Source: an uncultured Eubacteriales bacterium
GTDB taxonomy: Bacteria > Bacillota > Clostridia > Oscillospirales > CAG-382
Reading direction: 5' to 3'
Assembly (NCBI GenBank): GCA_934444645.1
Contig: CAKSCV010000009.1
Coordinates: 20,439 to 84,438 of the forward strand
Length of the DNA: 64,000 nt
The notes under the pieces were generated by a model. That model saw only the letters and a list, made by a program, of their open reading frames with translations, had not been told where the DNA came from and searched no databases. The number at the start of each line of letters is the position of its first letter. Positions within the stretch are counted from its first letter, which is position 1. This document shows, piece by piece, positions 11,839 to 46,894 of the stretch. The position numbers and the translations under genes are program-made.

Positions 11839-12678
11839 ATGCTCGATAAAAGCGATTATCTCGAACCGTGCTGCCCGTTCGACACCGACTTTTACAGGGA
11901 TGCGCCGCAAAAGCAGCCGACGGGACATATTTCCGTTTCGGAAATGCTTTCGCAGATCGACCGTCTGTATGCGCGCGGCGACCGCGATGCCATCGGCAGG
12001 GTGTTAACCGAATACCGCGAAAACGCCGAACGCTTGAACGATATTCACGGAGAGCTTTCGGTGTTAAACGAAATGCTCGGCCATTACCGCATGACGGCAA
12101 ATCCCGAAAAAGGGCTTGCCGCTGCTCGCCGAACGCTGGAATTGCTGCCGCAGGCGGATATTGCCGGGTCTGTGAGTGCCGGAACCATCCTTCTCAATGC
12201 CGCAACGGCCCTGCGGTCGTTCGGAAATGCAGCAAAAGCCTTGCAGCTGTATGCCGAAGCCTGCCGCTGCTATGCGGCACATCTGCCGCCCGAAGACCGC
12301 CGCTTTGCCGGACTCTACAACAATATGGCGTCTTCGTATGACGATGTCGGCGAAACGGCTCATGCCGAGACCTTCTATCAAAAAGCCCTTGCCGTTTTGG
12401 AAAAGTACGATGATCCGGAGGCCGTGCTTGACCGTGCCGTGACGCTGTTGAACCTTGCGCAGTTTTATGGAGCGCACGATGCCGCCGATGCCCGTGCTGC
12501 CTCGTATGCCGAAGCGTCGTTCGCGCTTTTCGAAAAAAGCGACTTGCCGCGCGCATACTATTATGCGCACACCGCCGAAAAATGCGCCGGCGGCTTTGAT
12601 GCGCTCGGCTTCTTTGTGTATGCCGATGCCTTGAAAAGCCGCGCCGAGGCCATTTATAGCGGAGAAACAGACGTATGA
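11839..12678 (+). CDS. Tetratricopeptide-repeat protein
   Basis: TPR-like helices are visible (LYNNMASSYDDVGETAHAETFYQKALAVLEK, LLNLAQFY...). The start was set at ATG 11839, 5 nt after GGAGGA (11828-11833). The track start at 11716 runs through the promoter. Confidence 0.6.
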   Translation: MLDKSDYLEPCCPFDTDFYRDAPQKQPTGHISVSEMLSQIDRLYARGDRDAIGRVLTEYRENAERLNDIHGELSVLNEMLGHYRMTANPEKGLAAARRTLELLPQADIAGSVSAGTILLNAATALRSFGNAAKALQLYAEACRCYAAHLPPEDRRFAGLYNNMASSYDDVGETAHAETFYQKALAVLEKYDDPEAVLDRAVTLLNLAQFYGAHDAADARAASYAEASFALFEKSDLPRAYYYAHTAEKCAGGFDALGFFVYADALKSRAEAIYSGETDV

Positions 12679-31031: not shown

Positions 31032-31054
31032 GAATTGCAAACCTCCTTTATCGG

Positions 31055-34000
31055 TTAAGCGTTAAATGCGTTCTGCAAAAAGGACACCGAAAGGTCAAGC
31101 CAACGCGAATAGTCCGCATAGCTCTCACCGAGTCCGACACCGTGGCCGGCATCGGAAAACGCATGGCATTCAGCCGTTTTCCCGGCGGCTTTTAAGGCGG
31201 CGGTAATCGCTTCGGCGTTTTTGGAAAAATTCACAGCCGTGTCCTTTTCGCCGTAAAAGGCGAAAGTGGACGGCATATCGTCTAAATTGTACGTATAGGA
31301 ATATTTGGCGATTTCCGTTTCGTCGTCTTTTTTGTCGCCCAAGAAGATTTCCGGCATGGTGGGATAGGTGCCGTCGCCGAGCGTTACGACCGGATAGCCG
31401 AGAATGCAGGCGTTCGGATGGGCGTTATACGCAGAAATACTGTCGGAAACGGGTGAAACAAAGGTGTTTGCTTTCTCACAGACGAGCATGGCAAGATGTC
31501 CGCCGGCCGAGAAGCCGCAAACAGCGATCTTTTCCGGATCGATTCCGAAGTCTTTTGCATAGCGGCGTACAAACTGCACGCTGCGAATGCCGTCAGCCAA
31601 AATGGCGTTTCCGTCATAGGGCTTGTAGCGGTAGTTGACTACAAAGGCCGAAATGCCCTTTTTGTTGTACGCCTTGGCAATGGCTGTGCCTTCGCTGTCA
31701 TCGGACAGCTGAAAGTAGCCGCCGCCCGGAAAGATGACGACTGCACTGTCTGCGCCGTCGGCGAGATACGCGCGTATGGTCGCCTGTAAAGTGTCCGCCC
31801 CTTTATCGTACGGAATCGTTCCGCTTTCCCAAAGCGCGATTTTTTCGTGACTTGAAATTTTTGCCATATCGATTTCCTCGTTTTCCCTGCCACCGGTGTT
31901 AACGACGCTGTTCGCGGCGTTTTTTGCAAGGTCGGTCTTGGCGGCAATCTCTTTTGCAAGATACGTTCCGAGAGCTTTTGCACCGTTTTTGTCGGGATGC
32001 GCGCCGTCGCTTGTGGTGTAAGAGAACGAGGGCTTGTCAACGAAAAAGACGTTGTTGTCGCCTAAGGCTTCCACAACCGCTTTGATGTCGGCGTTGTGCA
32101 TACCGGCAAAGGGCGATACCGCGAAGATCGGTGTGTTCGGGTATTTTTCGCGTAGCCGGTTCAAGACTGCCGTGTACGCTTCGGTAAAGGCGGCACTGTC
32201 GCTTGTCGGATCGTTGTGTCCGTGATTGATGACAATCGCTGCCGGAGCCGGCGTTTCGGAAAGCGGCATACCGTTATAAAGCGAATCGATGATATCGAGG
32301 CATTTCGGAACGCCGCCGCTGCCGCCGCGCGTCACGCCGCTGGCACCGAAGCCGTTGGTGTAGGAGACGGCGTTCAACCGGTGAGAAGCGACAAACGGAT
32401 ATTCGTTTGAGGCGGAGTTGCTGTCCGGCGTCGAGCCGGTGCCAAGCACGTTGATGCCCTCGGTAATGCTGTCGCCATAGTAGAGAATGACGGGATTGGT
32501 CGGGAGAAGTCCCGTGATTTTGCCGCCATCCTCAACCTCGGGGCATTCCAAAACAAAGCCCATGGCGCTCGTCCATTTTTCTTGGTATTCGTTGAAGCCG
32601 TCCACGATAATGCGGAAGGTGTGCTCGTTCTCGGAAAGGTTCTCGGCAAGGAGCAAGCGTCCCTCTTTGACGGTCGTCATGCGCTTCGGAAAACCTCCGT
32701 CTGTCGACACGGCAATGACCGGAGCGGGAGAGGCCGTCGAATGGAGCTTTAACCAAACCTTGCTTGTGCCGGAAACCTTGAAATAGAATTCCGCGCCCTG
32801 CGAGAAGGTCGCCTTGCAGGTTACGCCGTTCACATCCTTGTCGAACCAACGACCCATATAGCCGACCGGTTCGGAAATGGTTTGGTAGTTAAGCGCATAG
32901 CTTTCGGGCTTGAAATCCTTGTAGATGTCGGATACGCGGCTTGCAATATAATTTGCCAACAGCTTATAGCCGGTGTAGCCGCAGTGAAGCTCGTCGATCG
33001 GCATGTAGCCGCCGATGTTTTCGTAGGTAATGCCGCAGGCATAATAGTTATCGATGACCGGAAGTCCGTACTTTTCACCGAACTTCTTGATAACGCTTAC
33101 AGTTGTTTCCAAAGACGAGCGGTTTCGTTGGGTAGTGACCGGCGGCGTCATCAGAATGATCTGCGCCCTGCCGTTTGTTCGTTCCATACAGGTCTCGACG
33201 ATACGCGCATAGTAGCCGGTCTGGGTCTTGGCGTAGGAGGCGTAGTGAGAAGCCGCAGTATCGGCATCAATGGTGTCTGTTAACCCATTGTTCGTGCCGA
33301 GCATGATGAGAACGATGTCGGTCTCTTCGGAAAGCGCGACTTTCGAAAGCTGATTGTTGTAGTATAATTCTGCCGAATAGCCGCAGCGGCCGGCGTTTTT
33401 GACGTTCGCTCCCGTGATTTCCGCAAGAAAATACGGATAGCTTTCGGCGTGAACGTTCATGGTCCCTGCCGGATTGGAGCCGTAATCGCCCTCCGTCAGG
33501 CTGTCACCGATACAAACGATGTTTTTGCCTTTGAGACTGTTTTCTTCCTCTTGTTCGACTTGTTCGACAAGCGAAATTTCCGCTGCCGCAACCGATGCCG
33601 GGCGAATGCCGTCCGAAAGCGTGCTTTCAAACGCGATAAAGCGGATTTTGGTTGTATTTTCCGGAATGTTCGAGGCGGTAAGCCGTGTAAAGCCGTTTTG
33701 CGGCTCGGCGGTGACGGCGGACGAAGAAAGATACCGCATGCCGTCGTAATAGACCGCATAGAATGCACGTGCGTCCGTGCCGCTTGCCGGCGTGTAGAGG
33801 CAGTAGGCGCGTTTGTCGGCAGCACCGGTAGAAGCGATAAGCTCAGGTGTGCTTTCGTCGCGCACGATCAGAAGGTCGGGCAGCGCCGAAATGTCGGTGT
33901 TGGCCACCCATTCCTCCGCCGCGCCCTCAAGCGCCGGAACGCCGTTCTTGCGCAAGGCAGCTTCCGAAACAGAGGTGGAAAGACCATCCTCCTTGCCGGT

Positions 34001-35107
34001 GTTATATATATCGGAAAGGCTTGCCGTATTCATGCCGATTCCGGCGGCTTCGCTGATATTTAAGGAAGAAGAGATTCCGGCGTCGCTTTCTTCATGTGCT
34101 GTTTTCGCGTTGTTTGCCGCAACGCCGCCGACAATGCTGTTCGCGCCGGTAAGAGCTCCGGTATTTAACGTATTGACAAGGCTTGCTCCGGACTTGTAGC
34201 CGAGATTGAGTCCCACACCGCCGCCGATAAACGCGGCTTTGGACGTAATACTTCCGCCGTTCTTGGCAAGCGTTATCGTTCCGTTGACGTTCGCGCCTGC
34301 AATACCGCCGGCATAACCCGGATAAACGCTTTCTCCGGAAGCAGAGACTTTGCCTTCGTTTTCCACGCGGCAAAGAGAACCGGTGTTGTAGCCTGTAATA
34401 CCGCCGGCAAACACCGAAATGCCCTCGGCAGCCGCCGTGCCCGAGACGGAAGCGGTATTTATGCTGCCGGTGATAGCGCCGCGGTTTTCACCGGCCATGC
34501 CGCCAATGTTTAAGCGGTAAAGAGAGACTTCGGCAGAAAGCTTTCCGTTTGCAGTGCAGCCGCTTACCGAACCGCGGTTTAAGCCGACGATGCCGCCGAT
34601 ATCCGTAAGATAGGCGGTATCGGAAAGCGTCGCTTTGACCGTTGCCTTGCAGTTTCGGATGACCGTTTTTTTGTCGGTCGTGCCGGCGATGCCGCCGGCA
34701 TAGGCGGTAAAGCCGCTGACATCCGGCGTCAGATAGCCGTCGAACGTGCAGTTTTCGATGACGGTCGTGCCCTTGGCGATCGCTGCGATTCCTCCGACAG
34801 CCGTGCTGCCGCTTGCCGTACCGCGAACGGCGACATTCCGGATCTCGGCGTTTTCGGCGGCGCCGAACAGTCCGGCTTTGCCGCTTATACTTACCGTGTG
34901 ACCGCCGCCGTCAAATTTGCCGGTAAACGGTGCGTCGGATGAGCCGATCGGCGTGAAATCGTCGGGTAAGACCGCGTCGGCGGTCAGTTCATAGCTGCCG
35001 CCAAGATCCGAAATTTCGGACAGATCCGTAATCGGCACAGCGCGGCAGACAAGCGACCCGGCGAAAAACAACGCGGCACTGAGTAAGCATGTTGTGATTT
35101 TTCGCAT
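31055..35107 (-). CDS. Secreted multi-esterase: GLUG-like repeats + SGNH hydrolase + CE2-like beta-sandwich/SGNH + alpha/beta-hydrolase esterase, 1350 aa
   Basis: A signal peptide is present (MRKITTCLLSAALFFAGSLVCRA). A repeated GGIAG/GGIVG/GGMAG region (~34090-34930) is followed by GDSLTEG (33488-33508), GDSITEG (32456-32476) and the nucleophile elbow GFSAGG (31499-31516) with HGGG-like FPGGGY. RBS AAAGGAG. The stop lies 23 nt upstream of the GH78 start. Confidence 0.75.
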   Translation of the reverse strand: MRKITTCLLSAALFFAGSLVCRAVPITDLSEISDLGGSYELTADAVLPDDFTPIGSSDAPFTGKFDGGGHTVSISGKAGLFGAAENAEIRNVAVRGTASGSTAVGGIAAIAKGTTVIENCTFDGYLTPDVSGFTAYAGGIAGTTDKKTVIRNCKATVKATLSDTAYLTDIGGIVGLNRGSVSGCTANGKLSAEVSLYRLNIGGMAGENRGAITGSINTASVSGTAAAEGISVFAGGITGYNTGSLCRVENEGKVSASGESVYPGYAGGIAGANVNGTITLAKNGGSITSKAAFIGGGVGLNLGYKSGASLVNTLNTGALTGANSIVGGVAANNAKTAHEESDAGISSSLNISEAAGIGMNTASLSDIYNTGKEDGLSTSVSEAALRKNGVPALEGAAEEWVANTDISALPDLLIVRDESTPELIASTGAADKRAYCLYTPASGTDARAFYAVYYDGMRYLSSSAVTAEPQNGFTRLTASNIPENTTKIRFIAFESTLSDGIRPASVAAAEISLVEQVEQEEENSLKGKNIVCIGDSLTEGDYGSNPAGTMNVHAESYPYFLAEITGANVKNAGRCGYSAELYYNNQLSKVALSEETDIVLIMLGTNNGLTDTIDADTAASHYASYAKTQTGYYARIVETCMERTNGRAQIILMTPPVTTQRNRSSLETTVSVIKKFGEKYGLPVIDNYYACGITYENIGGYMPIDELHCGYTGYKLLANYIASRVSDIYKDFKPESYALNYQTISEPVGYMGRWFDKDVNGVTCKATFSQGAEFYFKVSGTSKVWLKLHSTASPAPVIAVSTDGGFPKRMTTVKEGRLLLAENLSENEHTFRIIVDGFNEYQEKWTSAMGFVLECPEVEDGGKITGLLPTNPVILYYGDSITEGINVLGTGSTPDSNSASNEYPFVASHRLNAVSYTNGFGASGVTRGGSGGVPKCLDIIDSLYNGMPLSETPAPAAIVINHGHNDPTSDSAAFTEAYTAVLNRLREKYPNTPIFAVSPFAGMHNADIKAVVEALGDNNVFFVDKPSFSYTTSDGAHPDKNGAKALGTYLAKEIAAKTDLAKNAANSVVNTGGRENEEIDMAKISSHEKIALWESGTIPYDKGADTLQATIRAYLADGADSAVVIFPGGGYFQLSDDSEGTAIAKAYNKKGISAFVVNYRYKPYDGNAILADGIRSVQFVRRYAKDFGIDPEKIAVCGFSAGGHLAMLVCEKANTFVSPVSDSISAYNAHPNACILGYPVVTLGDGTYPTMPEIFLGDKKDDETEIAKYSYTYNLDDMPSTFAFYGEKDTAVNFSKNAEAITAALKAAGKTAECHAFSDAGHGVGLGESYADYSRWLDLSVSFLQNAFNA

Positions 35108-35266
35108 TTGTATACTCCTTTCAGCTTGCAGTTTTGGTTATTTTAACAATACCATTATAGCGAAAAACGATGCTTTTGTAAATGCTTTGTTTTTGGAGAT
35201 GTTTAATCATATTTTGGATATTTTTTTGTTTTCCGGGAAAAAAGGCGAAAATCGTTGTTATGTTTC

Positions 35267-35295
35267 TTGACACGGACGGCAATTTGTGATACGAT
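35267..35295 (+). promoter_or_regulatory. Candidate promoter of AraC (uxaC-linked)
   Basis: TTGACA (35267-35272), 17 nt, then TACGAT (35290-35295). Confidence 0.4.
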
Positions 35296-35327
35296 AAAGA
35301 AAAAATGAGCGAAGGGGCGTGCGGCGA

Positions 35328-36215
35328 ATGCAAGAGTTTCGGACAATTCAGATCGACTGTTTACGCTATCTCGGCAGCTATTCCATGGGACACGCCGGGC
35401 AGGGCTGTGTGGATGATAAAACGAAGTTTCTTCCGCGGCATTTTCACGGAAATCAGTATGAGCTTACCTGTATTCTCGACGGCGAGGGTGTTTCCTATTG
35501 CAATGACATACCGCACGAGGTTCATGCGGGCGACGTTTTTGTGTCATTTCCGTATGAATACCATCGGTTGGAGGTCAAGCCGGGAACGGTGCTGTACCAG
35601 CGGTTTGTCACGTTTTCGGTCAATGCGGGAAACTATTTCGAGCGGCTCAACCATTTGTGGCTTGACAACATCGCGCCGGACAAGCGAACCTTTCGCGATG
35701 CGTCTGTGCCGCTGCTCATCGAAGAAATCGCCGGGGAATTGCAGACAGACGATTTATATGCCGCCGAAGTGTTGGAAAATTTGTTGGAAGCCGTGATTTT
35801 GCGTATGCTCCGCGGCATGGCGGACAAAAAACCGCAGAGCCTTTCCGCCAATCCCACCGCTCAAGACCTGTGCCGCCATGTGCAGCATTATATCAATACG
35901 CATTTGTTTACGCTCCACAGTCTGACGGAGGTTGCCGAAGCCGTAAGCTACAATTACAGCTATCTCTCGGCTTGCTTTAAGAAAACCACCGGACAAACCA
36001 TCACCGCCTATTATACAAAAAAACGTTTGGAGGCGGCCAAAGCTCTGATATACGAGCAACAGCTGTCACTTACGGAAATCGCCCGCACACTCGGGTATTC
36101 CGGCATCTATTCGTTCAGCAAAGCGTTTCGCGATTTTTACGGCATTTCGCCGAGCGATTACCGTGACCGGAAATTGCGCGAAAAAGAACGTCTTTATACA
36201 CTTGACCGGTCATAA
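35328..36215 (+). CDS. AraC-family transcriptional regulator
   Basis: The N-terminus is cupin-like and the C-terminus has an AraC double HTH (HSLTEVAEAVSYNYSYLSACFKKTTGQTITAYYTKKRL...LGYSGIYSFSKAFRDFYGISPSDY). The start is ATG 35328, with an alternative GTG at 35319. Confidence 0.8.
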   Translation: MQEFRTIQIDCLRYLGSYSMGHAGQGCVDDKTKFLPRHFHGNQYELTCILDGEGVSYCNDIPHEVHAGDVFVSFPYEYHRLEVKPGTVLYQRFVTFSVNAGNYFERLNHLWLDNIAPDKRTFRDASVPLLIEEIAGELQTDDLYAAEVLENLLEAVILRMLRGMADKKPQSLSANPTAQDLCRHVQHYINTHLFTLHSLTEVAEAVSYNYSYLSACFKKTTGQTITAYYTKKRLEAAKALIYEQQLSLTEIARTLGYSGIYSFSKAFRDFYGISPSDYRDRKLREKERLYTLDRS

Positions 36216-36257
36216 CGCCCGATATTTGTGTAATTCAACTGCGTTGCCGCCGAAAAC

Positions 36258-36286
36258 TTGACTTTTACGTCCGGGTTTGTTATACT
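36258..36286 (+). promoter_or_regulatory. sigma-A-type promoter of uxaC, followed by a palindrome
   Basis: TTGACT (36258-36263), 17 nt, then TATACT (36281-36286). The palindrome CAGATAATATCTG at about 36291-36303 lies just downstream and could be an operator. Confidence 0.5.
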
Positions 36287-36333
36287 ATCCGCAGATAATA
36301 TCTGTATCTTACCGCGCAGAAAGGAAGTTTGTC

Positions 36334-37743
36334 ATGAAAGAATTTATGGGAAAAGATTTTTTGCTTTCCACTCCGACCGCTGTAAAACTATTTGAAGACT
36401 ACGCCGAAAAAACGCCGATTGTGGACTATCACTGCCATTTGAGTCCAGAAGAAATTGCAGCCAACAAGCAGTTCAAGAACATCACCGAAGCCTGGCTCTA
36501 CGGCGACCACTACAAATGGCGCGCCATTCGCGCCTGCGGTTTTGAAGAAAGCCTTGTGACGGGCGGCGCGTCGGATTACGACCGCTTCAAAGCCTGGGCA
36601 AAGACCATGCCGAACCTCATCGGCAATCCGCTTTACCATTGGACGCATTTGGAGCTTGCACGTTATTTCGATATCCATGAGCCGTTAAACGAAGCGACCT
36701 GCGATACGATTTGGGAAAAATGCAATGCTATGCTCACGTCCGGCAAAATGGGCGCACGCGACCTCATCAAGGCAAGCGGCGTCAAGGTCATCTGCACCAC
36801 CGACGACCCGGCTGATTCGCTGGAGTTTCACCGCGCCATCGCCGACGACAAGAGCTTTGAGACGCGCGTGCTGCCGGCGTTCCGTCCCGATAAGGCGGTC
36901 AACATCGAGAAGCCCGGCTTTCAGGAATACATTGCCGAAAAGCTCGCACCGGCCTACGGCAAGGAAATCGCCGATATCGATACACTGCTTGACGCCATGA
37001 CCGCGCGCCTTGACCATTTTGAAGCGCATGGCTGCAAGACCAGCGATCACGGCATGGACTATGTGCCGTTTGCACCCTGCACCGCCAAAGAAGCCGACCT
37101 CATCTTCAAGAAAGCCCTTGCCGGGCAGACGCTCACGGTCGAAGATGCCGATAAGTATAAGACCTTCCTTCTGTCCTTCTTTGCCGGCGAATTTACCAAG
37201 AGAAACTGGGTCATGCAGATCCACTTCGGCGTTATCCGCAACCAAAGTGCCAAGAATTTTGCAAAACTCGGTCCGGATACCGGCTTTGATACCATTGCCG
37301 GCTATGACTGCGTCCGTAACGCACTCAAGCTGCTTGACAGCTTCGAAACGGCTGATCACCTGCCCAAGATGATCTTCTATTCGTTAAATCCCAACGACAA
37401 TGCCGCCATCGACGCCATGTGCGGCTGCTTCCAAGGCAACGGTAAGGGCATCAAGAGCCGCATTCAGCACGGCTCGGCATGGTGGTTCAACGACCACCTC
37501 GACGGTATGCGCGACCAGCTCCGCTCGTTTGCCGCCACCGGCGTGCTTGCCAACTTTGTCGGTATGCTCACCGATTCCCGTTCGTTCTTGTCCTATACGC
37601 GCCATGAGTATTTCCGCCGCATTCTCTGCGATTATCTCGGCGGCCTTATCGAGCGCGGCGAATATCCGAACGATATCGAAGCGGTCGGCAAGATGGTGTA
37701 CGACATCAGCTATCAGAACGCTTACGATTTCTTTGGGTTTTAA
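36334..37743 (+). CDS. uxaC: Glucuronate isomerase
   Basis: The UxaC signature is present (DYHCHLSPEEIA, WLYGDHYKWRAIR, NPLYHWTHLEL, MLTDSRSFLSYTRHEYFRR). The start was trimmed to ATG 36334 behind GAAAGGAAG. Confidence 0.92.
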   Translation: MKEFMGKDFLLSTPTAVKLFEDYAEKTPIVDYHCHLSPEEIAANKQFKNITEAWLYGDHYKWRAIRACGFEESLVTGGASDYDRFKAWAKTMPNLIGNPLYHWTHLELARYFDIHEPLNEATCDTIWEKCNAMLTSGKMGARDLIKASGVKVICTTDDPADSLEFHRAIADDKSFETRVLPAFRPDKAVNIEKPGFQEYIAEKLAPAYGKEIADIDTLLDAMTARLDHFEAHGCKTSDHGMDYVPFAPCTAKEADLIFKKALAGQTLTVEDADKYKTFLLSFFAGEFTKRNWVMQIHFGVIRNQSAKNFAKLGPDTGFDTIAGYDCVRNALKLLDSFETADHLPKMIFYSLNPNDNAAIDAMCGCFQGNGKGIKSRIQHGSAWWFNDHLDGMRDQLRSFAATGVLANFVGMLTDSRSFLSYTRHEYFRRILCDYLGGLIERGEYPNDIEAVGKMVYDISYQNAYDFFGF

Positions 37744-37763
37744 TTTCGAAAACAGAATATAAG

Positions 37764-37803
37764 AACGCGCTGTCCGAAATCGGTTTCCGGACAGCGCGTT
37801 TTT
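37764..37803. terminator. Bidirectional terminator between uxaC and the GRE operon
   Basis: AACGCGCTGTCCG / CGGACAGCGCGTT forms a stem of about 13 bp with an inner GAAA/TTTC stem. TTTT follows. Confidence 0.7.
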
Positions 37804-37804
37804 C

Positions 37805-38614
37805 TTATTTGCTTTGAAGAATTCTGTTCAGTTCGTCGAGCTTTTCTTTGGACGGAACAGCAAAGGACGTCATTTTTCTCTCAAGCGCCGTATATTTGTG
37901 TTCACCCATTTTGTGATAGGGCAAAAGCTCGGTTTTTATCGGCTTGAAAGCGTCAAGAAACGCCTTGACGGCTTTCATGTCTTCTGCCGAATCGTTGACG
38001 TTCGGAATGATTGGAATTCGTATCCAAACGTTTGCCTTAACCTCTAAGAGCTTTCGCAGGTTACTTAAAATCGGTTTGTTGGAAACGCCGACAAATTCTT
38101 TGTGTACGTCATCATTCAACGTTTTTATATCATACAGAAATAAGTCGGTATAAGGAAGCACCCTCTCAAAATTCTCCCATGGAACGAATCCTGCCGTATC
38201 GATGGCGGTATGGATGTGCTCTTGCTTGCACTTTTGTAAGATCTCGCACAGGAAATCGGTTTGCAGCATGCATTCGCCGCCTGAAAAGGTTACACCGCCG
38301 CCGGAGGTTTCGTAAAACGGTCTGTCTTTCTGTATCGTATCAAAAACCTCTTCGACCGTATATTCCTTTCCGCAGATCTGCTTTGCGTCATGAAAACAGA
38401 CAAATTCGGTATTCTTTTCGGTGATGCCTTTGCATCGGCCGCAGCCGGTGCATTTGTCCTTGTAGAATAATATTTGCGGCTTTGGTGATTGACTTTCGGG
38501 ATTGTGGCACCACTTGCATTTCAGATTACAACCCTTGAAAAAAACAGTGGTTCGTATGCCCGGACCATCGACAAACGAATTTCTTTGTATATCAAAAATA
38601 ACTGCTGTATTCAT
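37805..38614 (-). CDS. Glycyl-radical enzyme activating protein (radical SAM)
   Basis: The N-terminus reads VDGPGIRTTVFFKGCNLKCKWCHNPE, with CX3CX2C at 38507-38530. A single Cys-rich insert follows (CTGCGRC...C...C), then GGVTFSGGE. The start is ATG 38614, 8 nt after AGGTGG; an alternative GTG at 38626 abuts the GRE stop. Confidence 0.88.
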   Translation of the reverse strand: MNTAVIFDIQRNSFVDGPGIRTTVFFKGCNLKCKWCHNPESQSPKPQILFYKDKCTGCGRCKGITEKNTEFVCFHDAKQICGKEYTVEEVFDTIQKDRPFYETSGGGVTFSGGECMLQTDFLCEILQKCKQEHIHTAIDTAGFVPWENFERVLPYTDLFLYDIKTLNDDVHKEFVGVSNKPILSNLRKLLEVKANVWIRIPIIPNVNDSAEDMKAVKAFLDAFKPIKTELLPYHKMGEHKYTALERKMTSFAVPSKEKLDELNRILQSK

Positions 38615-38626
38615 CACGGCTGCCAC

Positions 38627-40750
38627 CTATTTTGTGTGCGTTGTTCTTTGTATGATCTCGTCCTGTAAGCCTTCGTTCAAAAACACGAAATAGTCGGAAA
38701 AGCCCGAAACCCGGACGCGCAGATTTTTGTATTTGTCCGGCGTTTTCTTCGCATTGACTAAGTCTTCTTTGGAAACATAGGTAAGCTGAAAATGTGTTCC
38801 ACCCATTTTGAAGTAGGTTTCAAACAGGTAAACAAGTTTTTCAAAGCTTTCATCATTTTTTACTAATTTCTCATCAAGCAGCACATTTGTAACGCTTGGT
38901 CCTGTCAAAATCGCATAAGGGTCGCATTTTGCAACAGAGGATAACAGAGCCGTAAGTCCGTTTCTGTCCTTGCCCTCCGATTGACCGATTCCGAAATTCA
39001 ACATATCGCCGTCAAAGCGCCCGTCGGGCGTCGCCTTGGTATGATCGCCGAAAAATTTGTGATGCTCGTTGTATCCGACAAGATTTCCGAAGACAAGCTT
39101 TTTGTGCAAATAGTTATCGCCGGTGTTCCACCTGTAAAGACTTTCAAAAAATCTGTGCGCCATATTGTTGGAAAGGTCGTCATCGTTGCCGAAAAACATG
39201 CCTTTTTTTAAGAGGTATTCCCGTAATTCGCCGTATCCGTTCCAGTTGTTCTGTAACGCTTCAATAAGCTGCTTCATGGTTACCCGTTTTTCATCGAAAA
39301 CCAACTGCTTTGTCACGGCAAGGGAATCGATGACGTTGGATATGCCGATAAGCAAGCCTACGGCGACATAGGTATCCGTGCCGCCTTGTGTAACGCTTTT
39401 GGCGTTTTGGATGCAGCCGTCAAGAAACATGTTGCTTACCAAATTGCAGTCGCGGCTGCGTATGGACTGCAAGCCTTTTCCGATTTCGTCGGCTTCGTGC
39501 AGATCCTTGTACAGTTCCTCTTGAAATACCGTGTAAAACTCATCGAAGCTTTGGACGTTCTGAATATCGCCGCTGCGGCTAAAAAACGTATTCTGCACAC
39601 AGCGCACAATATTCATCGGATCAAAGCCGAACACGATGCCGCCGGGAAGCGCGATCTCATTGCAGCCGATCATGGTATAGCTTACGGCTTTGCTGTATGG
39701 AAAACCGGTATATTCGGTCAAGCCCTTAATGCGCGGTTCGTCGTTTACAAAGGCAATGCGTTTGTTCGGATCGTTCCGCTCGCAGTTCATCATGTAACGA
39801 AGCACTTCGTGCGGCGTTTTGGCTGTCCAGCGCAGTGAGATCTGCGGAATCCATGTCGGCAGTTCCATAAGCGAATCAACAATCAGTTTTGATAGTTCGT
39901 TGAAGCCGTCCTCACCGTTTTCCAGATAGCCGCCGACGCAAAAGTGTGATTCGCCGCCGCGGTAAAAACGGTCGGAGGATTTGGGGATCCTTGCCTGCAG
40001 CATTAAAAACAGTTCCTGCAAATACGCAGACGCTTCTTCGTTGGTCAGAACGCCGCTTTCGATATCGGCTTTGTAAAAACGATATAAATACCGGTCAATT
40101 AACCCGATACTGTCCGGAATTAAGCCATAGCAGACGTATAAGGATAAAATAGCCTCATAAAAGCTTTTTGCAGGCTTTTCCGGAACATTTTTAAGGGAAC
40201 GGGATAATCTCTCCAAATTTTCTTTATACGTTGCATTGGATACGTTTTTTGAAAGAGCCAGCGCTTTTTCGGAGCATTTGTGAGCCCAGTCGATCACAGC
40301 GTCGCAAATATCCGTCTGGGTTTCCAGAAATTGAAGGGCTTTTTCGTCATCCTTATGATTTTCGATGGATTCTTGGATGATTTTCTTAATACCGACAATA
40401 CCGCTGTTAATGATTTTCCCGAAATCGCCTGCGGAATGCTGCCATTCAAACGTAAGTAAATTGTCAACCGGTTTGTTGTAGAAATTTTTGTCAGCGATTC
40501 CGAAATTGACGTGTCCTTTTCTGTTGAATATGTCTCCTTCCACACTGCCGTCGAAGGTCAATAACCCTGTAAAGGCGGATTCTTCAACAAGAAGCGGTTC
40601 CTGATTCCGGATATATTCGCAGACGCGTTTTGCGGACATTTTTACCGGCGATAAAAATAAGTCGCACCGGTCGTATTCCGTTTTGACCGGATAAACATAC
40701 ATTTGCCCGGCAACGGTTTTTTCGACTAACTTTTTGATTCTCTCATTCAT
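38627..40750 (-). CDS. Glycyl-radical enzyme, PFL2/dehydratase-like, unusually short (707 aa), unknown substrate
   Basis: The C-terminal glycyl motif is LRVRVSGFSDYF (Gly codon 38702-38704). An ATPDGR motif is present, and the Cys loop reads YTMIGCNEIALPGG (Cys codon 39662-39664). The N-terminus begins NERIKKL. The start is ATG 40750, 10 nt after GAGAGGAG; the track start at 40759 is a GTG 1 nt after that RBS. Confidence 0.88.
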   Translation of the reverse strand: MNERIKKLVEKTVAGQMYVYPVKTEYDRCDLFLSPVKMSAKRVCEYIRNQEPLLVEESAFTGLLTFDGSVEGDIFNRKGHVNFGIADKNFYNKPVDNLLTFEWQHSAGDFGKIINSGIVGIKKIIQESIENHKDDEKALQFLETQTDICDAVIDWAHKCSEKALALSKNVSNATYKENLERLSRSLKNVPEKPAKSFYEAILSLYVCYGLIPDSIGLIDRYLYRFYKADIESGVLTNEEASAYLQELFLMLQARIPKSSDRFYRGGESHFCVGGYLENGEDGFNELSKLIVDSLMELPTWIPQISLRWTAKTPHEVLRYMMNCERNDPNKRIAFVNDEPRIKGLTEYTGFPYSKAVSYTMIGCNEIALPGGIVFGFDPMNIVRCVQNTFFSRSGDIQNVQSFDEFYTVFQEELYKDLHEADEIGKGLQSIRSRDCNLVSNMFLDGCIQNAKSVTQGGTDTYVAVGLLIGISNVIDSLAVTKQLVFDEKRVTMKQLIEALQNNWNGYGELREYLLKKGMFFGNDDDLSNNMAHRFFESLYRWNTGDNYLHKKLVFGNLVGYNEHHKFFGDHTKATPDGRFDGDMLNFGIGQSEGKDRNGLTALLSSVAKCDPYAILTGPSVTNVLLDEKLVKNDESFEKLVYLFETYFKMGGTHFQLTYVSKEDLVNAKKTPDKYKNLRVRVSGFSDYFVFLNEGLQDEIIQRTTHTK

Positions 40751-40769
40751 TCTGCTCACACTCCTCTCA

Positions 40770-41501
40770 CTATCGGATGGAATAAGCGCCGTCTATAATC
40801 ACGGTTTCGCCGCAGATCATTCTTGCTTTTTCGTCCAAAAGATACATGGCAAGCGCGGCGACCTCATCGATCGAGGCAAACCGGCCGTAAGGGATCCGGT
40901 CATGCTTCATGGAATCGCCCTCGTGCCAGTTGTTCATTTCGGTCGCTACCGGTCCGGGCGCAATGCCGTTTATGGTGATCCCGTCCGAAGCAAACATTTT
41001 GCCCCAGCCGCGTGTCAGCCCTGTCGCCAGAATTTTGGAACCGCCGTATGCTCCGAAAACCGGTTCTTCGCCGGCAACCGACGTAATGTTCAGAATGTTG
41101 CCTTTTACGGCGTTTTTCAGCATATAGTTGACCGATGCCTGCATGGTGAAAAACACCGCGCTTGCGTTGACATCGATGACCTCCTGCCATTCCTTAGCCG
41201 TTGTCTGCAAAAGACTCCTTTTGTCCCATTCGCTCCGCCGGGCAAAAATGCCGGCATTGTTTATCACAATGTCAAGACCGCCGAGCTTTTCAGCTGCTTC
41301 GCGTATTTTTTCTTCGGCTTTATCGAATTCCGCCGCGTCCCAAACCATGGGGAACACGTTTTTGCCAAGCTCTGCTGCCGCACGTTCAAGTGTTTCTTTC
41401 TTTCTGCCGGTGATAACGACCGCATCGCCGTTTTGCACGAGCTTTTTGGCAATGGCATAGCCGATTCCGCGGCTTGCGCCGGTTACGAGCGCTTTTCTCA
41501 T
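40770..41501 (-). CDS. SDR-family oxidoreductase (FabG-like)
   Basis: Rossmann motif TGASRGIG, NNAG, and catalytic S...YGGSK are present. It is the first gene of the operon, 19 nt upstream of the GRE start, with RBS AAAGGAAAAGGTGG. Confidence 0.85.
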   Translation of the reverse strand: MRKALVTGASRGIGYAIAKKLVQNGDAVVITGRKKETLERAAAELGKNVFPMVWDAAEFDKAEEKIREAAEKLGGLDIVINNAGIFARRSEWDKRSLLQTTAKEWQEVIDVNASAVFFTMQASVNYMLKNAVKGNILNITSVAGEEPVFGAYGGSKILATGLTRGWGKMFASDGITINGIAPGPVATEMNNWHEGDSMKHDRIPYGRFASIDEVAALAMYLLDEKARMICGETVIIDGAYSIR

Positions 41502-41533
41502 ATTTATCCCACCTTTTCCTTTGATTTACTATG

Positions 41534-41561
41534 ATTATATAACGATTTCTGAAAAAGTAAA
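41534..41561 (-). promoter_or_regulatory. Candidate promoter of the SDR-GRE-activase operon
   Basis: On the minus strand TTTACT (41556-41561) is followed by 16 nt and TATAAT (41534-41539). The -35 is weak. Confidence 0.35.
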
Positions 41562-41602
41562 TGCTTGTAAAGGTTGAAATTTGTCTGAAACGGACATTTT
41601 CC

Positions 41603-41631
41603 TTGAAATTTTCAAATGTTTGTGCTATAAT
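41603..41631 (+). promoter_or_regulatory. sigma-A-type promoter of the divergent AraC gene
   Basis: TTGAAA (41603-41608), 17 nt, then an extended -10, TGcTATAAT (TATAAT = 41626-41631). The 9-mer TTGAAATTT occurs twice, at 41574 and 41603. Confidence 0.55.
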
Positions 41632-41668
41632 GCAAAAAAGCAAATGAAGAAGGATAGGTGTTCAAAGG

Positions 41669-42493
41669 ATGCAGAAAATAAACTATGATTTTCCGGATAT
41701 GCCGTATATTAACGACGCAAGGTTCTTTTGCGATACCCTGCCGAAAGATAAGCCGTATAGCGCGCTTGTACCACGAAATCACGAAAGTCTTGCATTTGTT
41801 ACAAACGGAACACTCGGCTATACAAAAAACGGAAAAACCGTTCCGGTCAAAGCAGGACAAATCGTCTATATCGCAAAAGGTTCACTTGACGAAAGCGGCG
41901 CGTATCACTGTGATGCGGTGTCCTATATGGCGGTCAATTTCAACTTCGAGAAAAATGCCGCCTCTTTGCGCAGCGCGTTTCCCTTCAAAACGGTCTGTGC
42001 CGATAAAAACACCTATCCGTACGAAAAGCTGTTTCAAAAAGCCGTGAATGAGTATAGTCTGAATCTGCCGGGAACTCGGATGATATGCAATGGGATCTTG
42101 TGCCAGATGATCGGTATGCTGTATAATGACCTTCGCTTTGACAACATCAATTACAAAATGGCAGGGAAAATTGAAACTGCACTTGATTATTTAAACCGGA
42201 ATTACAGCCGTCCGGATTTGAAGATCGGCGAGCTTGCGGAGATGACCGGTATCAGCGAAAAGCATTTCCGACGTTTGTTTTGGGACATATATCAAAAGAC
42301 GCCGCATGAATTTTTGCGGGATTTTCGCTTGGATAAGGCAGAGCTTCTGCTTTTGAACACGTCAAAACCGATTTCCGCCATCGCCCTTGGCTGCGGCTTT
42401 TCGGATATGTATTCCTTCAGCCACTGCTTTAAGCGGCATTTCGGCGTACCGCCGAAGGTATACCGGGAAAATCGGACGTATCCTTACGGATAA
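41669..42493 (+). CDS. AraC-family transcriptional regulator (divergent from the GRE operon)
   Basis: The C-terminus has a double HTH (LKIGELAEMTGISEKHFRRLFWDIYQKTPHEFLRDFRL...LGCGFSDMYSFSHCFKRHFGVPPKVY) and the N-terminus looks like a cupin. Confidence 0.8.
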   Translation: MQKINYDFPDMPYINDARFFCDTLPKDKPYSALVPRNHESLAFVTNGTLGYTKNGKTVPVKAGQIVYIAKGSLDESGAYHCDAVSYMAVNFNFEKNAASLRSAFPFKTVCADKNTYPYEKLFQKAVNEYSLNLPGTRMICNGILCQMIGMLYNDLRFDNINYKMAGKIETALDYLNRNYSRPDLKIGELAEMTGISEKHFRRLFWDIYQKTPHEFLRDFRLDKAELLLLNTSKPISAIALGCGFSDMYSFSHCFKRHFGVPPKVYRENRTYPYG

Positions 42494-42521
42494 CTGCATG
42501 TACATGGGTGTTGCGGAAAGC

Positions 42522-42562
42522 AAAAAAGCGGCTGCCCCGTATTTTGGGGAGCAGCCGCTTTT
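42522..42562. terminator. Bidirectional terminator (AraC / potD)
   Basis: GCGGCTGCCCC pairs with GGGGAGCAGCCGC (one bulge), flanked by an A6 run and a T4 run. Confidence 0.65.
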
Positions 42563-42577
42563 GGTTTGTGGTTCGTT

Positions 42578-43783
42578 TTAATAATCGATTTTCGAATTCT
42601 TTTTCTTTCTTGCCACATACAGAATGATGAAGATGATAAGGGCAAGAAGCAGAATGAGTGCCAACAGATACACCGGGCTGTCGAACATAGAGGTGCTGCG
42701 GATCTGAAGCCACAGATCCTCCATGTGGCTGTTGGCTTCGTCGCCAAGCATCACAAATGTTTCGGAATTCTCAAGAACCTCGTCGCTCGGCATGATCCGT
42801 TCGTCAACGCCCACAATTTCCATCGCCTCTGTCTGCGGCGTGAAGTACGAGATGAATTCGCAGTTGGCGACGGCGATATCGGTTTCGCAAAGGAAGTTGA
42901 TGAAGGCTTCGGCGGCATCCTTGTTGGTCGTGCCTTTGGGAATGCAGATCGAGTCGATAAACTGGTTGACGCCCTCTTTGGGATAGGAAAACGCAAGATC
43001 TTCGTTGCGTTCCATCATGGTAAGGCAGTCGCCGGCATAGTAGGGAGCGGCATAGGCGTTCTCGTTGGCCATTTTGTCAAATGTCTGATCCATGGCGTAC
43101 ATCTGATTGATGGCTTTCTGTGCTTTGAGCGCATCGGCAGCCTTGTCGATCTCTTCAAGATTTTCCGTGTTGAGGGAATAGCCGAGCTTTTTGAGTGCGA
43201 TACCGAAGGCGTCGCGGCTGTTGCCGAACATAAGGACCTTGCCCTTGAACTTTTCGTTCCACAGGATGTCCCAAGTGCTTGCTTCTTCGGCTGTCACGTG
43301 CTTTGTGTTGTACACAAGACCCACCATGCCCCAGGTGTAGGGGACGGTGTAGGCTCCTTCGGGATCAAAATCGGTATAGCGGTATTTGTCGTCGATGAGC
43401 GAGATGTTCGGGATCTTGTCAAAATCGAGCTTTTCCAAACGATCCTCGTCGATAAGACGGGCGATCATGTAGTCGGACGGGATGATGATGTCGTACTGTG
43501 AACCGCCGTGAACCACCTTGGCATACATATCCTCGTTGGTATCAAACAGCGTGTAGTTGACCTTGATGCCGGAAATTTCTTCAAATTCCTTGATGACATC
43601 AACGCTGTCGTCCGAACCGTCGGAGATGTATTCGCCCCAGTTGTAGACGTTTAAGGTGATTCCCTTGTCACGGAAGGCGGCATAGTAGGCTTCGTCCTCG
43701 ACGGAAACCTCGGCAAAGGCGGCAAAGCTGAAGGTCATAGCCGCCAAAAGGGCAAGCAAGACGGAAAATACGGTTTTTTTCAT
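42578..43783 (-). CDS. potD: Spermidine/putrescine ABC transporter substrate-binding protein with an extra C-terminal TM helix
   Basis: The core is PotD-like (LNVYNWGEYISDG, YDIIIPSDYMIARL). The N-terminal signal peptide has no lipobox Cys (AAFAEVS), and the C-terminus is hydrophobic. Confidence 0.85.
   Translation of the reverse strand: MKKTVFSVLLALLAAMTFSFAAFAEVSVEDEAYYAAFRDKGITLNVYNWGEYISDGSDDSVDVIKEFEEISGIKVNYTLFDTNEDMYAKVVHGGSQYDIIIPSDYMIARLIDEDRLEKLDFDKIPNISLIDDKYRYTDFDPEGAYTVPYTWGMVGLVYNTKHVTAEEASTWDILWNEKFKGKVLMFGNSRDAFGIALKKLGYSLNTENLEEIDKAADALKAQKAINQMYAMDQTFDKMANENAYAAPYYAGDCLTMMERNEDLAFSYPKEGVNQFIDSICIPKGTTNKDAAEAFINFLCETDIAVANCEFISYFTPQTEAMEIVGVDERIMPSDEVLENSETFVMLGDEANSHMEDLWLQIRSTSMFDSPVYLLALILLLALIIFIILYVARKKKNSKIDY
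42581..42679 (-). other. C-terminal transmembrane anchor of PotD
   Basis: The last 33 aa are SPVYLLALILLLALIIFIILYVARKKKNSKIDY, a hydrophobic helix of about 20 aa followed by a basic tail. Confidence 0.7.
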
Positions 43784-43811
43784 AGATTTATCTCCTTAAT
43801 ATGTGATAGGT

Positions 43812-44615
43812 TTAGGCTTTTTTGGCAAGCCCGGCAGCCTTGTTCTTTTCGTTTTCAAACTTCATATCCACAAGATTGTAAACGATGAGTACGGCAAGCA
43901 CACCGACGAAAAGCAGTGTGGAAAGCGCGTAAATGGTCGGCGTGACCTGCTTTTTGGTCATGCTGTAAATGACCACCGGCAGGGTTTGCGAGGTTGTGCC
44001 GGAGGTGAAATAGCTGATGACGAAATCGTCGATCGAGTAGGTGAGTGCCATCAGAAATCCGGAAACGATGCCAGGCATGATTTCGGGAATTACCACTTTG
44101 AAAAACGCCTGCCGGCGGTTGCAGCCGAGATCCATGGCGGCTTCATACAAACTGACGTTTAACTGCCGCAGTTTCGGCAGCACGCTTAAAACCACCGTCG
44201 GCACACAGAAGGTGACGTGCGCCAAAATCAGCGTCGCAAAGCCGGACGTGAATTTGAAGTAAGCGAACAACAGCATGAGCGAGATACCGGTCACGATCTC
44301 CGGATTGAGAATCTGAATATAGGTGAGCGTGCGCATAACGCCCTTGGACATCTTTTTCATGCTGTTCATGCCGAAGGCCGCCGTCGTGCCTAAAATGGTC
44401 GCAAGCACCGATGCGACCAGCGCGACGATGAGCGTGTTGATAAACGCGCCGATGATGGCTTGGTTGCGGAACAATTCCGCATACCACTTGGTGGTAAAGC
44501 CTGTCCAGGTCGCACCCTTGCTGGTGTTGAACGAAAAGACGATAAGAATCAGAATCGGAATATACAGAAAGGCAAAGCAAATGCCGGTGTATATGCGTGA
44601 AAATGTCTTTTTCAT
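43812..44615 (-). CDS. potC: Spermidine/putrescine ABC transporter permease
   Basis: The protein has six TM segments and an EAA-like loop (LYEAAMDLGCNRRQAFFKVVIPEI). Its ATG overlaps the potB stop by 4 nt. Confidence 0.85.
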   Translation of the reverse strand: MKKTFSRIYTGICFAFLYIPILILIVFSFNTSKGATWTGFTTKWYAELFRNQAIIGAFINTLIVALVASVLATILGTTAAFGMNSMKKMSKGVMRTLTYIQILNPEIVTGISLMLLFAYFKFTSGFATLILAHVTFCVPTVVLSVLPKLRQLNVSLYEAAMDLGCNRRQAFFKVVIPEIMPGIVSGFLMALTYSIDDFVISYFTSGTTSQTLPVVIYSMTKKQVTPTIYALSTLLFVGVLAVLIVYNLVDMKFENEKNKAAGLAKKA

Positions 44616-45433
44616 TTGATTGAATCCTCCATTTCATCACTGTCAAACTGGTTGAGGATTCCCATACTGATAAGCACCACGATCATCAGCACCAGCGAAG
44701 TTGCCGAGCCGACATGGAAGCCGGTTCCCTTGAGCTTGAACTGTTCTTCAATGAGGTCGCCGATGAGATAGCAGTCGCTGCCGCCCAAAAGGCGCGAAAT
44801 GATGAACGTGCTCACACACGGCACAAACGTCATGGTAATGCCGGTTGCAATGCCCGGAAAGCTTAACGGCACGACCACCTTGCGGATAACCACCGGCATA
44901 CTGCATCCGAGGTCTTGGGCAGCCTCGATGACGTGCCGGTCGATCTTCGTCATAATCGAAAACAGCGGCAGAATCATAAACGGCAGATAGTTGTAGACCA
45001 TGCCTAAAATGACCGCACCCGAGGTGTTGATAAGCTTTGCCGCAGGCAGTCCGAAAAAGGCAAGAAGGTTGTTGATGATGCCGTTGTCCTCAAGAATGGT
45101 CATCCACGCATACGTGCGCAGAAGAAAGTTCATCCACATCGGCAGCATGACAAGCAGCATAAACACCCGCTGTACGGCTGCCGATTTGCGGCTCATGATG
45201 TAGGCAAGCGGATAGGCGACAAGCAGGCAGATAAGCGTTGCGACAAACGCAAGGCACAGCGATTTGATAAGTACCGGCAGATAGGCGCTGGAATTGGCAA
45301 TGTTGTCAAACGTAAAACGGCCGGTGGCGTTGTCCGAGAAGGCGTAGTAGATAACTAAGACAAACGGAACGATCGTGAAGATCAAAATCCAGATAATGTA
45401 GGGAATGGCGGAAATTTTAGAGCCCCGCTTCAT
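44612..45433 (-). CDS. potB: Spermidine/putrescine ABC transporter permease
   Basis: An EAA-like loop is present ([23 protein letters not shown]). The start was trimmed to ATG 45433 ([12 protein letters not shown]) behind GGGAGG. The 54-aa N-terminal extension in the track overlaps potA. Confidence 0.85.
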
Positions 45434-46520
45434 TTGCCGCACCTCCCTCGAGGTACTCCGCGTCAGGCGTGTCCGAAGCATAGCTCTTGTGCATGATGTG
45501 AATGTCCTCCGGTGTAAGCGCCATGCCGATAAAGGAGCCTGCCTCGGCGGCTTTGGTGGAATGGATCTTCCATTTCGTGCCAAAGCTGTCCACAATCATT
45601 TCAAAGTGAACGCCCTTGAAGGTGACGGTTTCAACCGTGCCGTCTATGGTCGTGCCGTCCGGCTCTTTGACGCGGATGTCTTCGGGACGGATGACCACGT
45701 CCACCGGCTCCATCTTGTCAAAGCCCTTGTCCACACAGACAAAGTGCTTGCCGGCAAATTCAACGTCATAGTCGTCGTGCATAATGCCCGAAACAATGTT
45801 GCTTTCACCGATAAAGCGCGCCACAAAGGCGTTGGCCGGTTCGTTGTAGATGTCCTCGGGCGTGCCGATCTGGTCGATACAGCCGCGGTTCATGACGACG
45901 ATGCGGTCGCTCATGGTGAGAGCTTCTTCTTGGTCGTGAGTAACGTAAATGAAGGTGATGCCGAGCTGTTGTTGCATCCGCTTCAACTCGATCTGCATTT
46001 CTTTGCGTAATTGTAAGTCAAGCGCACCGAGCGGCTCGTCGAGAAGCAACATCCGCGGATGGTTGATGAGCGCCCGTGCAATGGCAACGCGCTGCTGTTG
46101 ACCGCCGGAGAGAAAATCCACTTTCTTTGCGCCGTAGCCTTTGAGGTTGACAAGCTCAAGCATTTCGAGAACGCTCTGTTTTATCTCTTTTTCGGGCGTT
46201 TTTTTCAAACGCAGACCGAAAGCAATGTTTTCAAATACGTTCAAATGGGGGAAAAGTGCGTACTTTTGGAAAACCGTGTTGACCTGCCGTTTGTACGGCG
46301 GAATTTTGTTGATCAGCTTTCCGTCAAAGAAGACCTGTCCTTCGTGCGGCTCGATAAAGCCGCCGATGATGCGAAGCGTCGTTGTTTTTCCGCATCCGGA
46401 GGGACCCAGCAAGGTAATAAATTCCTTGTCATGGATATCGAGATCGATACCCTTCAATACCTGCTCATCGTCAAAATTCATGACAATGTCTTTCAAGCGA
46501 ACGATGACACTTTTGTCCAA
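45417..46520 (-). CDS. potA: Spermidine/putrescine ABC transporter ATPase
   Basis: Walker A (GPSGCGKTT), the ABC signature ([15 protein letters not shown]), Walker B (LLLDEP) and a C-terminal TOBE-like domain are all present. The start is TTG, 6 nt after GGAGGTG. Confidence 0.9.
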
Positions 46521-46843: not shown

Positions 46844-46894
46844 TAAATGTACGCTACCTATATTATCAAAAAACGGAAAAAGCGAGGAAAAATC

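Follow-up and report, generated by a model that had tools for sequence, protein, structure and literature searches.

Glycyl radical enzymes (GREs) drive several gut reactions that are relevant to the host, including the formation of trimethylamine, H2S, p-cresol and skatole and the use of hydroxyproline. Glycerol dehydratase (GD) pairs with 1,3-propanediol dehydrogenase in the gene order dhaB1-dhaB2-dhaT. The eliminase HpfG is reported to pair with HpfD, a reductase of its product (PMC11489063). A superfamily review of June 2026 describes a CXE motif shared by the eliminases and isomerases, in which the Cys serves for hydrogen abstraction and the Glu for hydrogen bonding to, or deprotonation of, the substrate hydroxyl; the X residue is given no role, and entire GRE clades are reported as still unannotated (PMC13450708). 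Here, we analyzed a GRE gene in a stretch of 64,000 nucleotides (hereafter the window) on contig CAKSCV010000009.1 of an uncultured Eubacteriales bacterium of the lineage CAG-382. The gene belongs to a large, widespread and uncharacterized clade of gut bacteria. The two traits flagged by an initial annotation, a Cys loop reading G-C-N-E and a protein of reduced length, are genuine traits of this clade, yet neither goes beyond what the superfamily naturally shows, and no concept is overturned. The clade is a compact and distinct subfamily of a well-known kind of enzyme, and its substrate is probably new. Very likely, the gene encodes an active CXE-type (eliminase- or isomerase-like) GRE of the PFL-like superfamily. 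A narrower proposal, radical 1,2-elimination (most likely the loss of water from a diol- or polyol-like compound) with subsequent reduction of the carbonyl by a short-chain dehydrogenase/reductase (SDR), is in our judgment evenly poised between right and wrong.

The gene and its radical motifs are located as follows.
38627..40750, minus strand: GRE catalytic subunit of 707 amino acids (aa), stop codon 38627-38629 included, with PFL-like and Gly_radical domains and the ribosome-binding site GAGAGGAG 5' of the ATG at 40750.
39638..39673, minus strand: Cys loop MIGCNEIALPGG, residues 360-371, with the codons of Cys363 (39662-39664), Asn364 (39659-39661) and Glu365 (39656-39658).
39017..39034, minus strand: ATPDGR motif, residues 573-578.
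38687..38713, minus strand: Gly loop RVSGFSDYF, residues 680-688; 38702-38704 encodes Gly683.
In the list of open reading frames (ORFs), the frame spans 38627..40759 on the minus strand, and a GTG start at 40759 would yield a protein of 710 aa. We dropped this start for the ATG at 40750 because both the spacing of the ribosome-binding site, about 8 nt 5' of this ATG, and the length of the homologues fit: the length of 707 aa is that of more than 100 homologues with 80-89% identity, and the protein start MNERIKKL is common to the homologues in 79 loci (79 species-level genomes). Pfam recovered PFL-like (PF02901; E 7e-80) and Gly_radical (PF01228; E 9e-21) in the protein. This is a strongly conserved gene and no chance ORF; it is intact and encodes an oxygen-sensitive radical enzyme. 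The radical hallmarks that had been reported for it, Gly683 in RVSGFSDYF, ATPDGR and the G-C-N-E loop, were all recovered at their coordinates.

An exhaustive search of representatives returned relatives that are full-length (700-713 aa) down to about 33% identity, and a word-indexed search returned 1,750 clusters at E<=1e-20. The invariant core of the clade consists of E/D102, W103, H105, D213, S214, D219, H269, Y275 and C363-N364-E365. Its hosts are almost wholly represented by metagenome-assembled genomes (MAGs) of human (Hadza, Nepal), ruminant and chicken gut origin, and they include Acutalibacteraceae, Oscillospiraceae, Ruminococcaceae, Ca. Ornithomonoglobus, Kiritimatiellia, Lentisphaeria and Verrucomicrobia. 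In their sources, the members carry no other names than "pyruvate formate lyase family protein" and "hypothetical protein". The best HMMER matches of the query to solved GREs were HpsG (6LON), CutC and IslA, and none of the NCBIfam equivalog cut-offs (HpsG, HpfG, HypD, CutC, IAD, HPAD, PFL and PflD-type) was reached, the best score being 283 against the 1000 of the HpsG model. In the literature, we found no paper that pairs GCNE with a glycyl radical or that characterizes an SDR-GRE-AraC module. In NCBIfam, the PDB, database names and the literature searched, we thus found no function assigned to GCNE-type GREs of this length, a finding that would have spoken against the initial annotation. 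A solved chain of 687 aa called formate acetyltransferase (PDB 38la_A) matched only weakly (E 1e-7, 34 bits); a structure therefore exists for one compact GRE-like protein or more, although this one is not close to the clade.

The catalytic residues were placed by HMMER alignment to solved GREs, that is, by sequence only. Cys363 and Glu365 fall on C433 and E435 of GD, and also on the catalytic Cys and Glu of the CutC (GCvE), IslA (GCiE) and HpsG (GCtE) loops, for which residue numbers were taken from PMC13450708. The Cys at 39662-39664 had been proposed as the thiyl Cys, and this assignment is borne out by its position in the alignment, on GD C433 and on the catalytic Cys in the loops of CutC, IslA and HpsG, as well as by its invariance in 51 clade members. 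The C-X-E feature of GRE 1,2-eliminases and isomerases is thus present as C363-N364-E365. Three further positions complete the catalytic set.
40436..40438, minus strand: codon of His105, clade-invariant and aligned with GD His164, the general acid.
40109..40114, minus strand: codons of Asp213-Ser214; Asp213 is clade-specific and invariant, and Ser214 falls on GD Ser282.
39620..39622, minus strand: codon of Asp377, 14 residues from the Cys, as GD Asp447, and kept only in the window's subclade (FGFDP).
Gly683, Cys363, Glu365 and His105 align with the G763-type Gly, C433, E435 and H164 of GD, and the loop that bears GD His281 is deleted in the Asp213-Ser214 region. With the exception of D377, this set is invariant across the 51 clade members. 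The marks of C-O eliminases (a general-acid His on the first barrel strand and Ser/Asp substrate ligands) are matched in the alignment by H105 and S214, which are kept across the clade, and by D377, which is kept in the subclade.

The initial annotation had assumed that characterized eliminases all read GCVE. This is wrong: CutC and GD do, but X varies among characterized enzymes, since it is Ile in IslA (GCIE) and Thr in HpsG (GCTE). We surveyed X in the 125 full-length GRE representatives (clustered at 50% identity) that are nearest to the query. Val was found in 43/125 and Asn in 18/125, followed by Ala, Trp and Ile (7/125 each). Other residues at X were G, T, Q, S, L, M, F, Y, E, H, D and C. 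Asn, the second commonest residue, was likewise found in seven clusters outside the query clade (724-785 aa). The G-C-N-E loop is real, as had been noted, and is found across the clade, but it is less unusual than presumed. Within the clade, Asn364 was invariant in 51 sequences down to 31% identity and in every member in the 79 loci, so that it marks the clade and is surely under selection. It may contact the substrate or pack against the Gly loop; the distinct proton handling suggested for it in the initial annotation would be a further possible role. Several columns are associated with Asn364 (D213, Q303, F519 and others), an association confounded by shared ancestry, and Ser or Thr ahead of the radical Gly appeared enriched by eye with Asn at X, which we did not rely on. 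D213, H269 and Y275 are clade-invariant polar residues absent from other GREs. In some of the GRE relatives returned by the search (representatives P0169, P0215 and P0254), all outside the query clade, the radical Gly is replaced by Thr or Ala (RVATYS, RVAAYS, RVATWT); these are probably aminoacyl radical enzymes as in PMC11528403.

The reported length deficit of about 80-140 aa is correct: the protein has 707 aa vs 785-846 aa in the solved eliminases and isomerases. Ahead of the conserved His, the query has 105 residues vs a median of 172 in GREs of at least 780 aa, and from this His to the C-terminus it has 603 residues vs 630. About 67 of the approximately 95 missing residues (roughly 70% of the loss) are therefore N-terminal, and the remainder consists of small internal deletions near residues 134, 212, 255 and 269. 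In the clade profile, homology to GD and propanediol dehydratase (PD) starts only at query residue ~57-60, which corresponds to GD 116 and PD 122. This places the trimming chiefly at the N-terminus, where the initial annotation had anticipated it as one of two options (N-terminal or peripheral helices).
40583..40750, minus strand: clade-specific N-terminal ~56 residues, which stand in for the ~115-120 N-terminal residues of GD and PD.
The N-terminal 112 residues had no match in the PDB, and the first ~56 residues had no sequence match to any solved structure by PDB search and clade profile. The lost segment is the extreme N-terminal helical region. The helices ahead of the barrel form the conserved GRE dimer interface (PMC13450708), and the trimming may bear on oligomerization. 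Shortness itself is unexceptional among uncharacterized clusters: 51/125 full-length representatives span 690-759 aa, so that compact GREs are not rare.

The GRE gene lies in an operon in the order SDR, GRE, activase, all on the minus strand, with a divergent AraC gene.
37764..37800, minus strand: intrinsic-terminator-like hairpin with a 16-bp stem and a T-rich tail, 3' of the activase gene.
37805..38626, minus strand: GRE-activating radical SAM enzyme, 273 aa from a GTG at 38626, scoring 331 bits on TIGR02494 vs a cut-off of 174.
38372-38452, minus strand: degenerate ferredoxin-like insert of the activase with five Cys (CX2CX2C-X11-C-X7-C).
40770..41501, minus strand: classical SDR of 243 aa, the first gene of the operon, 5' of the GRE gene in the window's subclade.
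41534..41561, minus strand: promoter-like site TTTACT-16-TATAAT, 5' of the SDR gene, a consensus match only.
41669..42493, plus strand: AraC-family regulator of 274 aa, divergent from the operon and with its own promoter-like site.
The activase more likely starts at the ATG at 38614, 8 nt after AGGTGG, and its CX3CX2C motif lies at 38507-38530. It is assigned by its sequence to the family that installs the glycyl radical, which would here be set on Gly683, and it scored best on the HypD-activase model (337 bits vs a cut-off of 425). Typical non-PFL GRE activases carry an insert with eight Cys in two CX2CX2CX3C motifs (PMC13450708). The window activase has no such eight-Cys insert and, with only five Cys, could accommodate no more than one auxiliary cluster. 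In most activases of the clade, the insert is compact and retains eight Cys (CX2CX2CX3CP...CX2CX2CX3CP), and the five-Cys insert recurs in loci L003, L005, L006, L007, L011, L014, L033, L035, L040, L052 and L062.

Across the clade, a divergent AraC gene was present in 55/80 loci and an activase gene in 54/80, and the arrangement SDR-GRE-activase with divergent AraC is kept across the subclade of at least 61% identity. The four-gene module was also found in a Hadza/Nepal gut contig with wholly different flanks. No riboswitch or leader RNA was matched by Rfam over 35000-43000. On the strand opposite the SDR gene, an ORF of 266 aa (40734-41534, plus strand) exceeds the SDR in length; a longest-ORF picker preferred this ORF, which we treated as an artefact and which is probably spurious.

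In the mechanism that we propose, by homology to GD, PD and HypD, the activase would set a glycyl radical on Gly683, which would in turn generate a thiyl radical on Cys363. The thiyl would take a hydrogen from the carbinol carbon of the substrate, Glu365 would deprotonate the substrate hydroxyl, the vicinal leaving group would depart with the help of His105 (the equivalent of GD His164), and the hydrogen atom would be handed back from Cys363. A small, diol- or polyol-like hydroxylated metabolite would in this way be dehydrated to a carbonyl compound, which the SDR would probably reduce with NAD(P)H, and the substrate would presumably induce the operon via the divergent AraC regulator. Such a substrate and dehydration are favored by the positions of Ser214 on GD Ser282 and of Asp377 on GD Asp447. 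The pairing of HypD with pyrroline-5-carboxylate (P5C) reductase follows the same logic, a GRE and then a reductase, as we propose for the GRE and the SDR.

Several observations weigh against this proposal. No transporter or further pathway gene was conserved with the module. The SDR is generic: it reached no equivalog cut-off, its best PDB matches are FabG-like, and its step could precede that of the GRE instead of following it. We rejected it as a clue to the substrate, its matches being only FabG-, glucose-dehydrogenase- and butanediol-dehydrogenase-like and all under cut-offs. On TIGR01774 (PFL2-3), the model of the formate C-acetyltransferase / glycerol dehydratase subfamily of GREs, the query scored 252.8 bits vs a cut-off of 678. 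The query lacks counterparts of GD His281 and probably of Tyr339, and D213, H269 and Y275 are invariant polar residues particular to the clade. The AlphaFold2 model of the protein (pLDDT 81, pTM 0.84) is unreliable at the Cys loop, with pLDDT <50 at residues 364-375, and at the glycyl radical domain. Finally, the CXE motif, the His and the fold are common to isomerases, such that elimination and isomerization are inseparable by sequence.

Isomerases share every tested feature. As an isomerase like YbiW, PflD or HplG, the GRE would act by hydrogen abstraction and Glu-assisted heterolysis on a cyclic ether or amine, for example an anhydro-sugar or a cyclic amino acid; the ring would be opened to give a keto product, which the SDR would reduce. 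By Foldseek, the model lay at about the same distance from the dehydratases of propanediol, hydroxyproline and glycerol as from HplG and CutC (TM ~0.8; 20-24% identity); its best structural matches were the three dehydratases (TM ~0.8), and HplG, PflD and YbiW were nearly as good (TM 0.76-0.79). The hosts degrade plant glycans (GH78, GH28, GH95, UxaC, BD-FAE), which makes unusual sugars plausible substrates of an isomerase. However, the flanking glycan genes are not conserved with the module, the aldolase, kinase or phosphotransferase system genes of anhydroglycolysis loci are missing, and identity to the isomerases is just 19-23%. We consider an isomerase unlikely, though it is the strongest of the alternatives.

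The diversity of the clade bears on the other alternatives. Residues 372-379 (the strand past the Cys loop) and 618-624 vary, and subclades defined by them track accessory genes. The window's subclade (at least 61% identity) reads GCNE[IL]A[LM]PGG[IM]VFGFDP and has the SDR gene upstream. A second subclade, GCNEPAFLGAITGSNSK, has as partners hydrolases (M20 peptidase, phosphotriesterase-family, beta-lactamase-fold and CapA-like) as well as an SDR gene downstream; no partner gene goes with a third, GCNEVAFPGGIYMGSAQEN; and a subclade of Verrucomicrobia/Lentisphaeria, GCNEPAFQGGISLGGNT, adjoins a FAD_oxidored protein. Because the core is invariant while the variable stretches track the accessory genes, these results suggest one shared chemistry on differing substrates across subclades. 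Tandem GRE paralogues, each with its own AraC gene, are frequent. Several GCNE-type GREs of different subclades were observed per genome or locus (L010, L025, L039, L026, L029, L061 and L065), three of these loci (L010, L025 and L039) being contigs of a single Ca. Ornithomonoglobus MAG. Multiple GCNE paralogues suggest a repertoire of enzymes diversified for substrates.

It is improbable, on this evidence, that the chemistry or the substrate class is new to GREs, for instance amide- or ester-conjugated or peptide-derived compounds handled by Asn364 and D213/H269/Y275 as a distinct apparatus. Such novelty would account for the hydrolases tied to sister subclades (M20 peptidase, phosphotriesterase-family, beta-lactamase-fold, CapA-like and GDSL), for the clade-specific invariant polar residues absent from other GREs, for the failed TIGR01774 cut-off and for the tandem paralogues with an AraC gene each. 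But the window's own subclade has the SDR only, the canonical dehydratase set His/Ser/Cys/Glu(/Asp) is retained, and the hydrolases may merely release a conventional hydroxylated substrate. An equally improbable extension is that the GCNE clade forms a new functional class, in which compact, AraC-controlled "plug-in" modules would have radiated in fiber-degrading gut bacteria onto compounds of diet or host. Some of these may be amide- or ester-conjugated, as proposed because of the hydrolase partners; Asn364, D213, H269 and Y275 would support an undescribed reaction or substrate, and the trimmed N-terminus would alter or abolish the dimer interface.

Marginally less probable is that the enzyme cleaves C-N or C-S bonds like CutC or IslA/HpsG, with an amino alcohol or a hydroxy-sulfonate as substrate and the SDR reducing the released aldehyde or ketone. 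The best HMMER matches (HpsG, CutC and IslA) and the best NCBIfam model (HpsG) all belong to this group, and D213 and D219, both acidic and invariant, are potential ligands of an ammonium group. Equivalog scores are nevertheless far under cut-offs (e.g., 283 vs 1000 and 240 vs 1050), and the conserved neighbors include no genes for a sulfite reductase, a microcompartment shell or the handling of amines. C-S lyases bind the sulfonate with an Arg/Gln/Arg triad (PMC13450708), which was not found in the query: the Q193 and R678 of IslA align with Glu102 and Gly559, and IslA R189 is outside the reliably aligned region. A sulfonate substrate is disfavored because of these two replacements. Lastly, the pyruvate formate-lyase (formate C-acetyltransferase) activity implied by source names such as "pyruvate formate lyase family protein" and by the name of the Pfam domain is excluded to near certainty by the single Cys of the G-C-N-E loop, where PFL and TdcE need the adjacent cysteines C418-C419 (PMC13450708), and by low model scores (72 on TIGR01255 vs a cut-off of 994), and PFL structures match the C-terminal ~180 residues only (E 1e-15).

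A second compact GRE family (720-762 aa; 21-26% identity to the query) was observed in tandem arrangement with GCNE GREs. It has GC[YW]E or GCWG/GCWD in the Cys loop and RV[CA]G[WF][NS], mostly RVCGWN, in the Gly loop.
L005:15109-17343, L015:11083-13308, L039:2341-4512 and L043:13692-15905: second-family GREs.
L061:3129-5321 and 11154-13316, L080:12876-15164 and L026:763-3003: further second-family GREs.
These copies usually have their own AraC gene, some occur with GDSL esterase and EamA transporter genes, and Pfam recovered PFL-like and Gly_radical domains in two of them. In locus L018 (~3800-6500), a GD/PD/CutC-like GRE of 892 aa (GCVEPQKSGKTEGWHD) with its own short activase adjoins the GCNE GRE.

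The operon of the window is flanked by the following genes.
25821-31040, minus strand: GH78 alpha-L-rhamnosidase with a carbohydrate-binding module, 1739 aa.
31055-35107, minus strand: GDSL and BD-FAE esterase, 1350 aa.
36277-37743, plus strand: glucuronate isomerase UxaC, with its own AraC gene at 35319-36215.
42578-46520, minus strand: ABC importer made up of a solute-binding protein, permeases and a TOBE-domain ATPase, beyond the AraC gene of the operon.
46847-49030, plus strand: second rhamnosidase-like protein.
The rhamnosidase and rhamnosidase-like genes, the esterase and UxaC have plant-cell-wall functions and indicate a pectin- or fiber-degrading host. UxaC and GH78 genes flank the operon here and in its closest relative, L014, but not in other genomes, and we did not use the flanking genes for substrate assignment because they are not conserved with the module elsewhere. 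A link between the importer and the GRE is likewise unsupported, since the importer is common to L014 only.

Together, the clade represents a good target for deorphanization: it is large and compact, with a minimal activase and small regulated modules, and it is found mostly in uncultured fiber-degrading gut Clostridia and Verrucomicrobia/Lentisphaeria. The subclade signatures past the Cys loop (FGFDP, GSNSK, GSAQE and GGNT) that track accessory enzymes offer handles for substrate guesses.

We compared the locus with the characterized systems. YbiW, PflD and HplG (8ID7, 8ID0/8YJO and 7VUA) share the CXE motif and the fold with the query, and PflD, at about 765 aa, is its shortest characterized relative; identity is 19-23%, and the GRE loci are without an aldolase or sugar-phosphate context. 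HpsG and HpfG (2,3-dihydroxypropane-1-sulfonate sulfolyase and dehydratase; 6LON) and IslA and IseG, which are sulfite-lyases of isethionate (7KQ3 and 5YMR), are the best sequence matches and share CXE, but the query is about 100-120 aa shorter, has Glu102/Gly559 in place of the sulfonate Gln/Arg and scores far under the equivalog cut-offs. The trans-4-hydroxy-L-proline dehydratase HypD (6VXC) is a top structural match and its activase model the best for our activase; yet both scores fall short of the cut-offs (263 vs 1100 for the GRE and 337 vs 425 for the activase), identity is 23%, and no P5C reductase gene is present. DhaB1/DhaB2 of Clostridium butyricum (1R8W/1R9D) and the GRE propanediol dehydratase of Roseburia inulinivorans (5I2G) differ from the window's system by an identity of only ~24%, by 80-136 aa that the query lacks chiefly at the extreme N-terminus, by Val rather than Asn at X and by the His281 loop of GD, which is deleted here; the reductase of the window is an SDR, there is no microcompartment, and the TIGR01774 cut-off is failed. 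They nevertheless have the same fold (TM ~0.8) and an adjacent activase, and a reductase gene stands in the same operon, by analogy with dhaT. Residue by residue, H105, S214, C363, E365, D377 and G683 correspond to H164, S282, C433, E435, D447 and the radical Gly of glycerol dehydratase.

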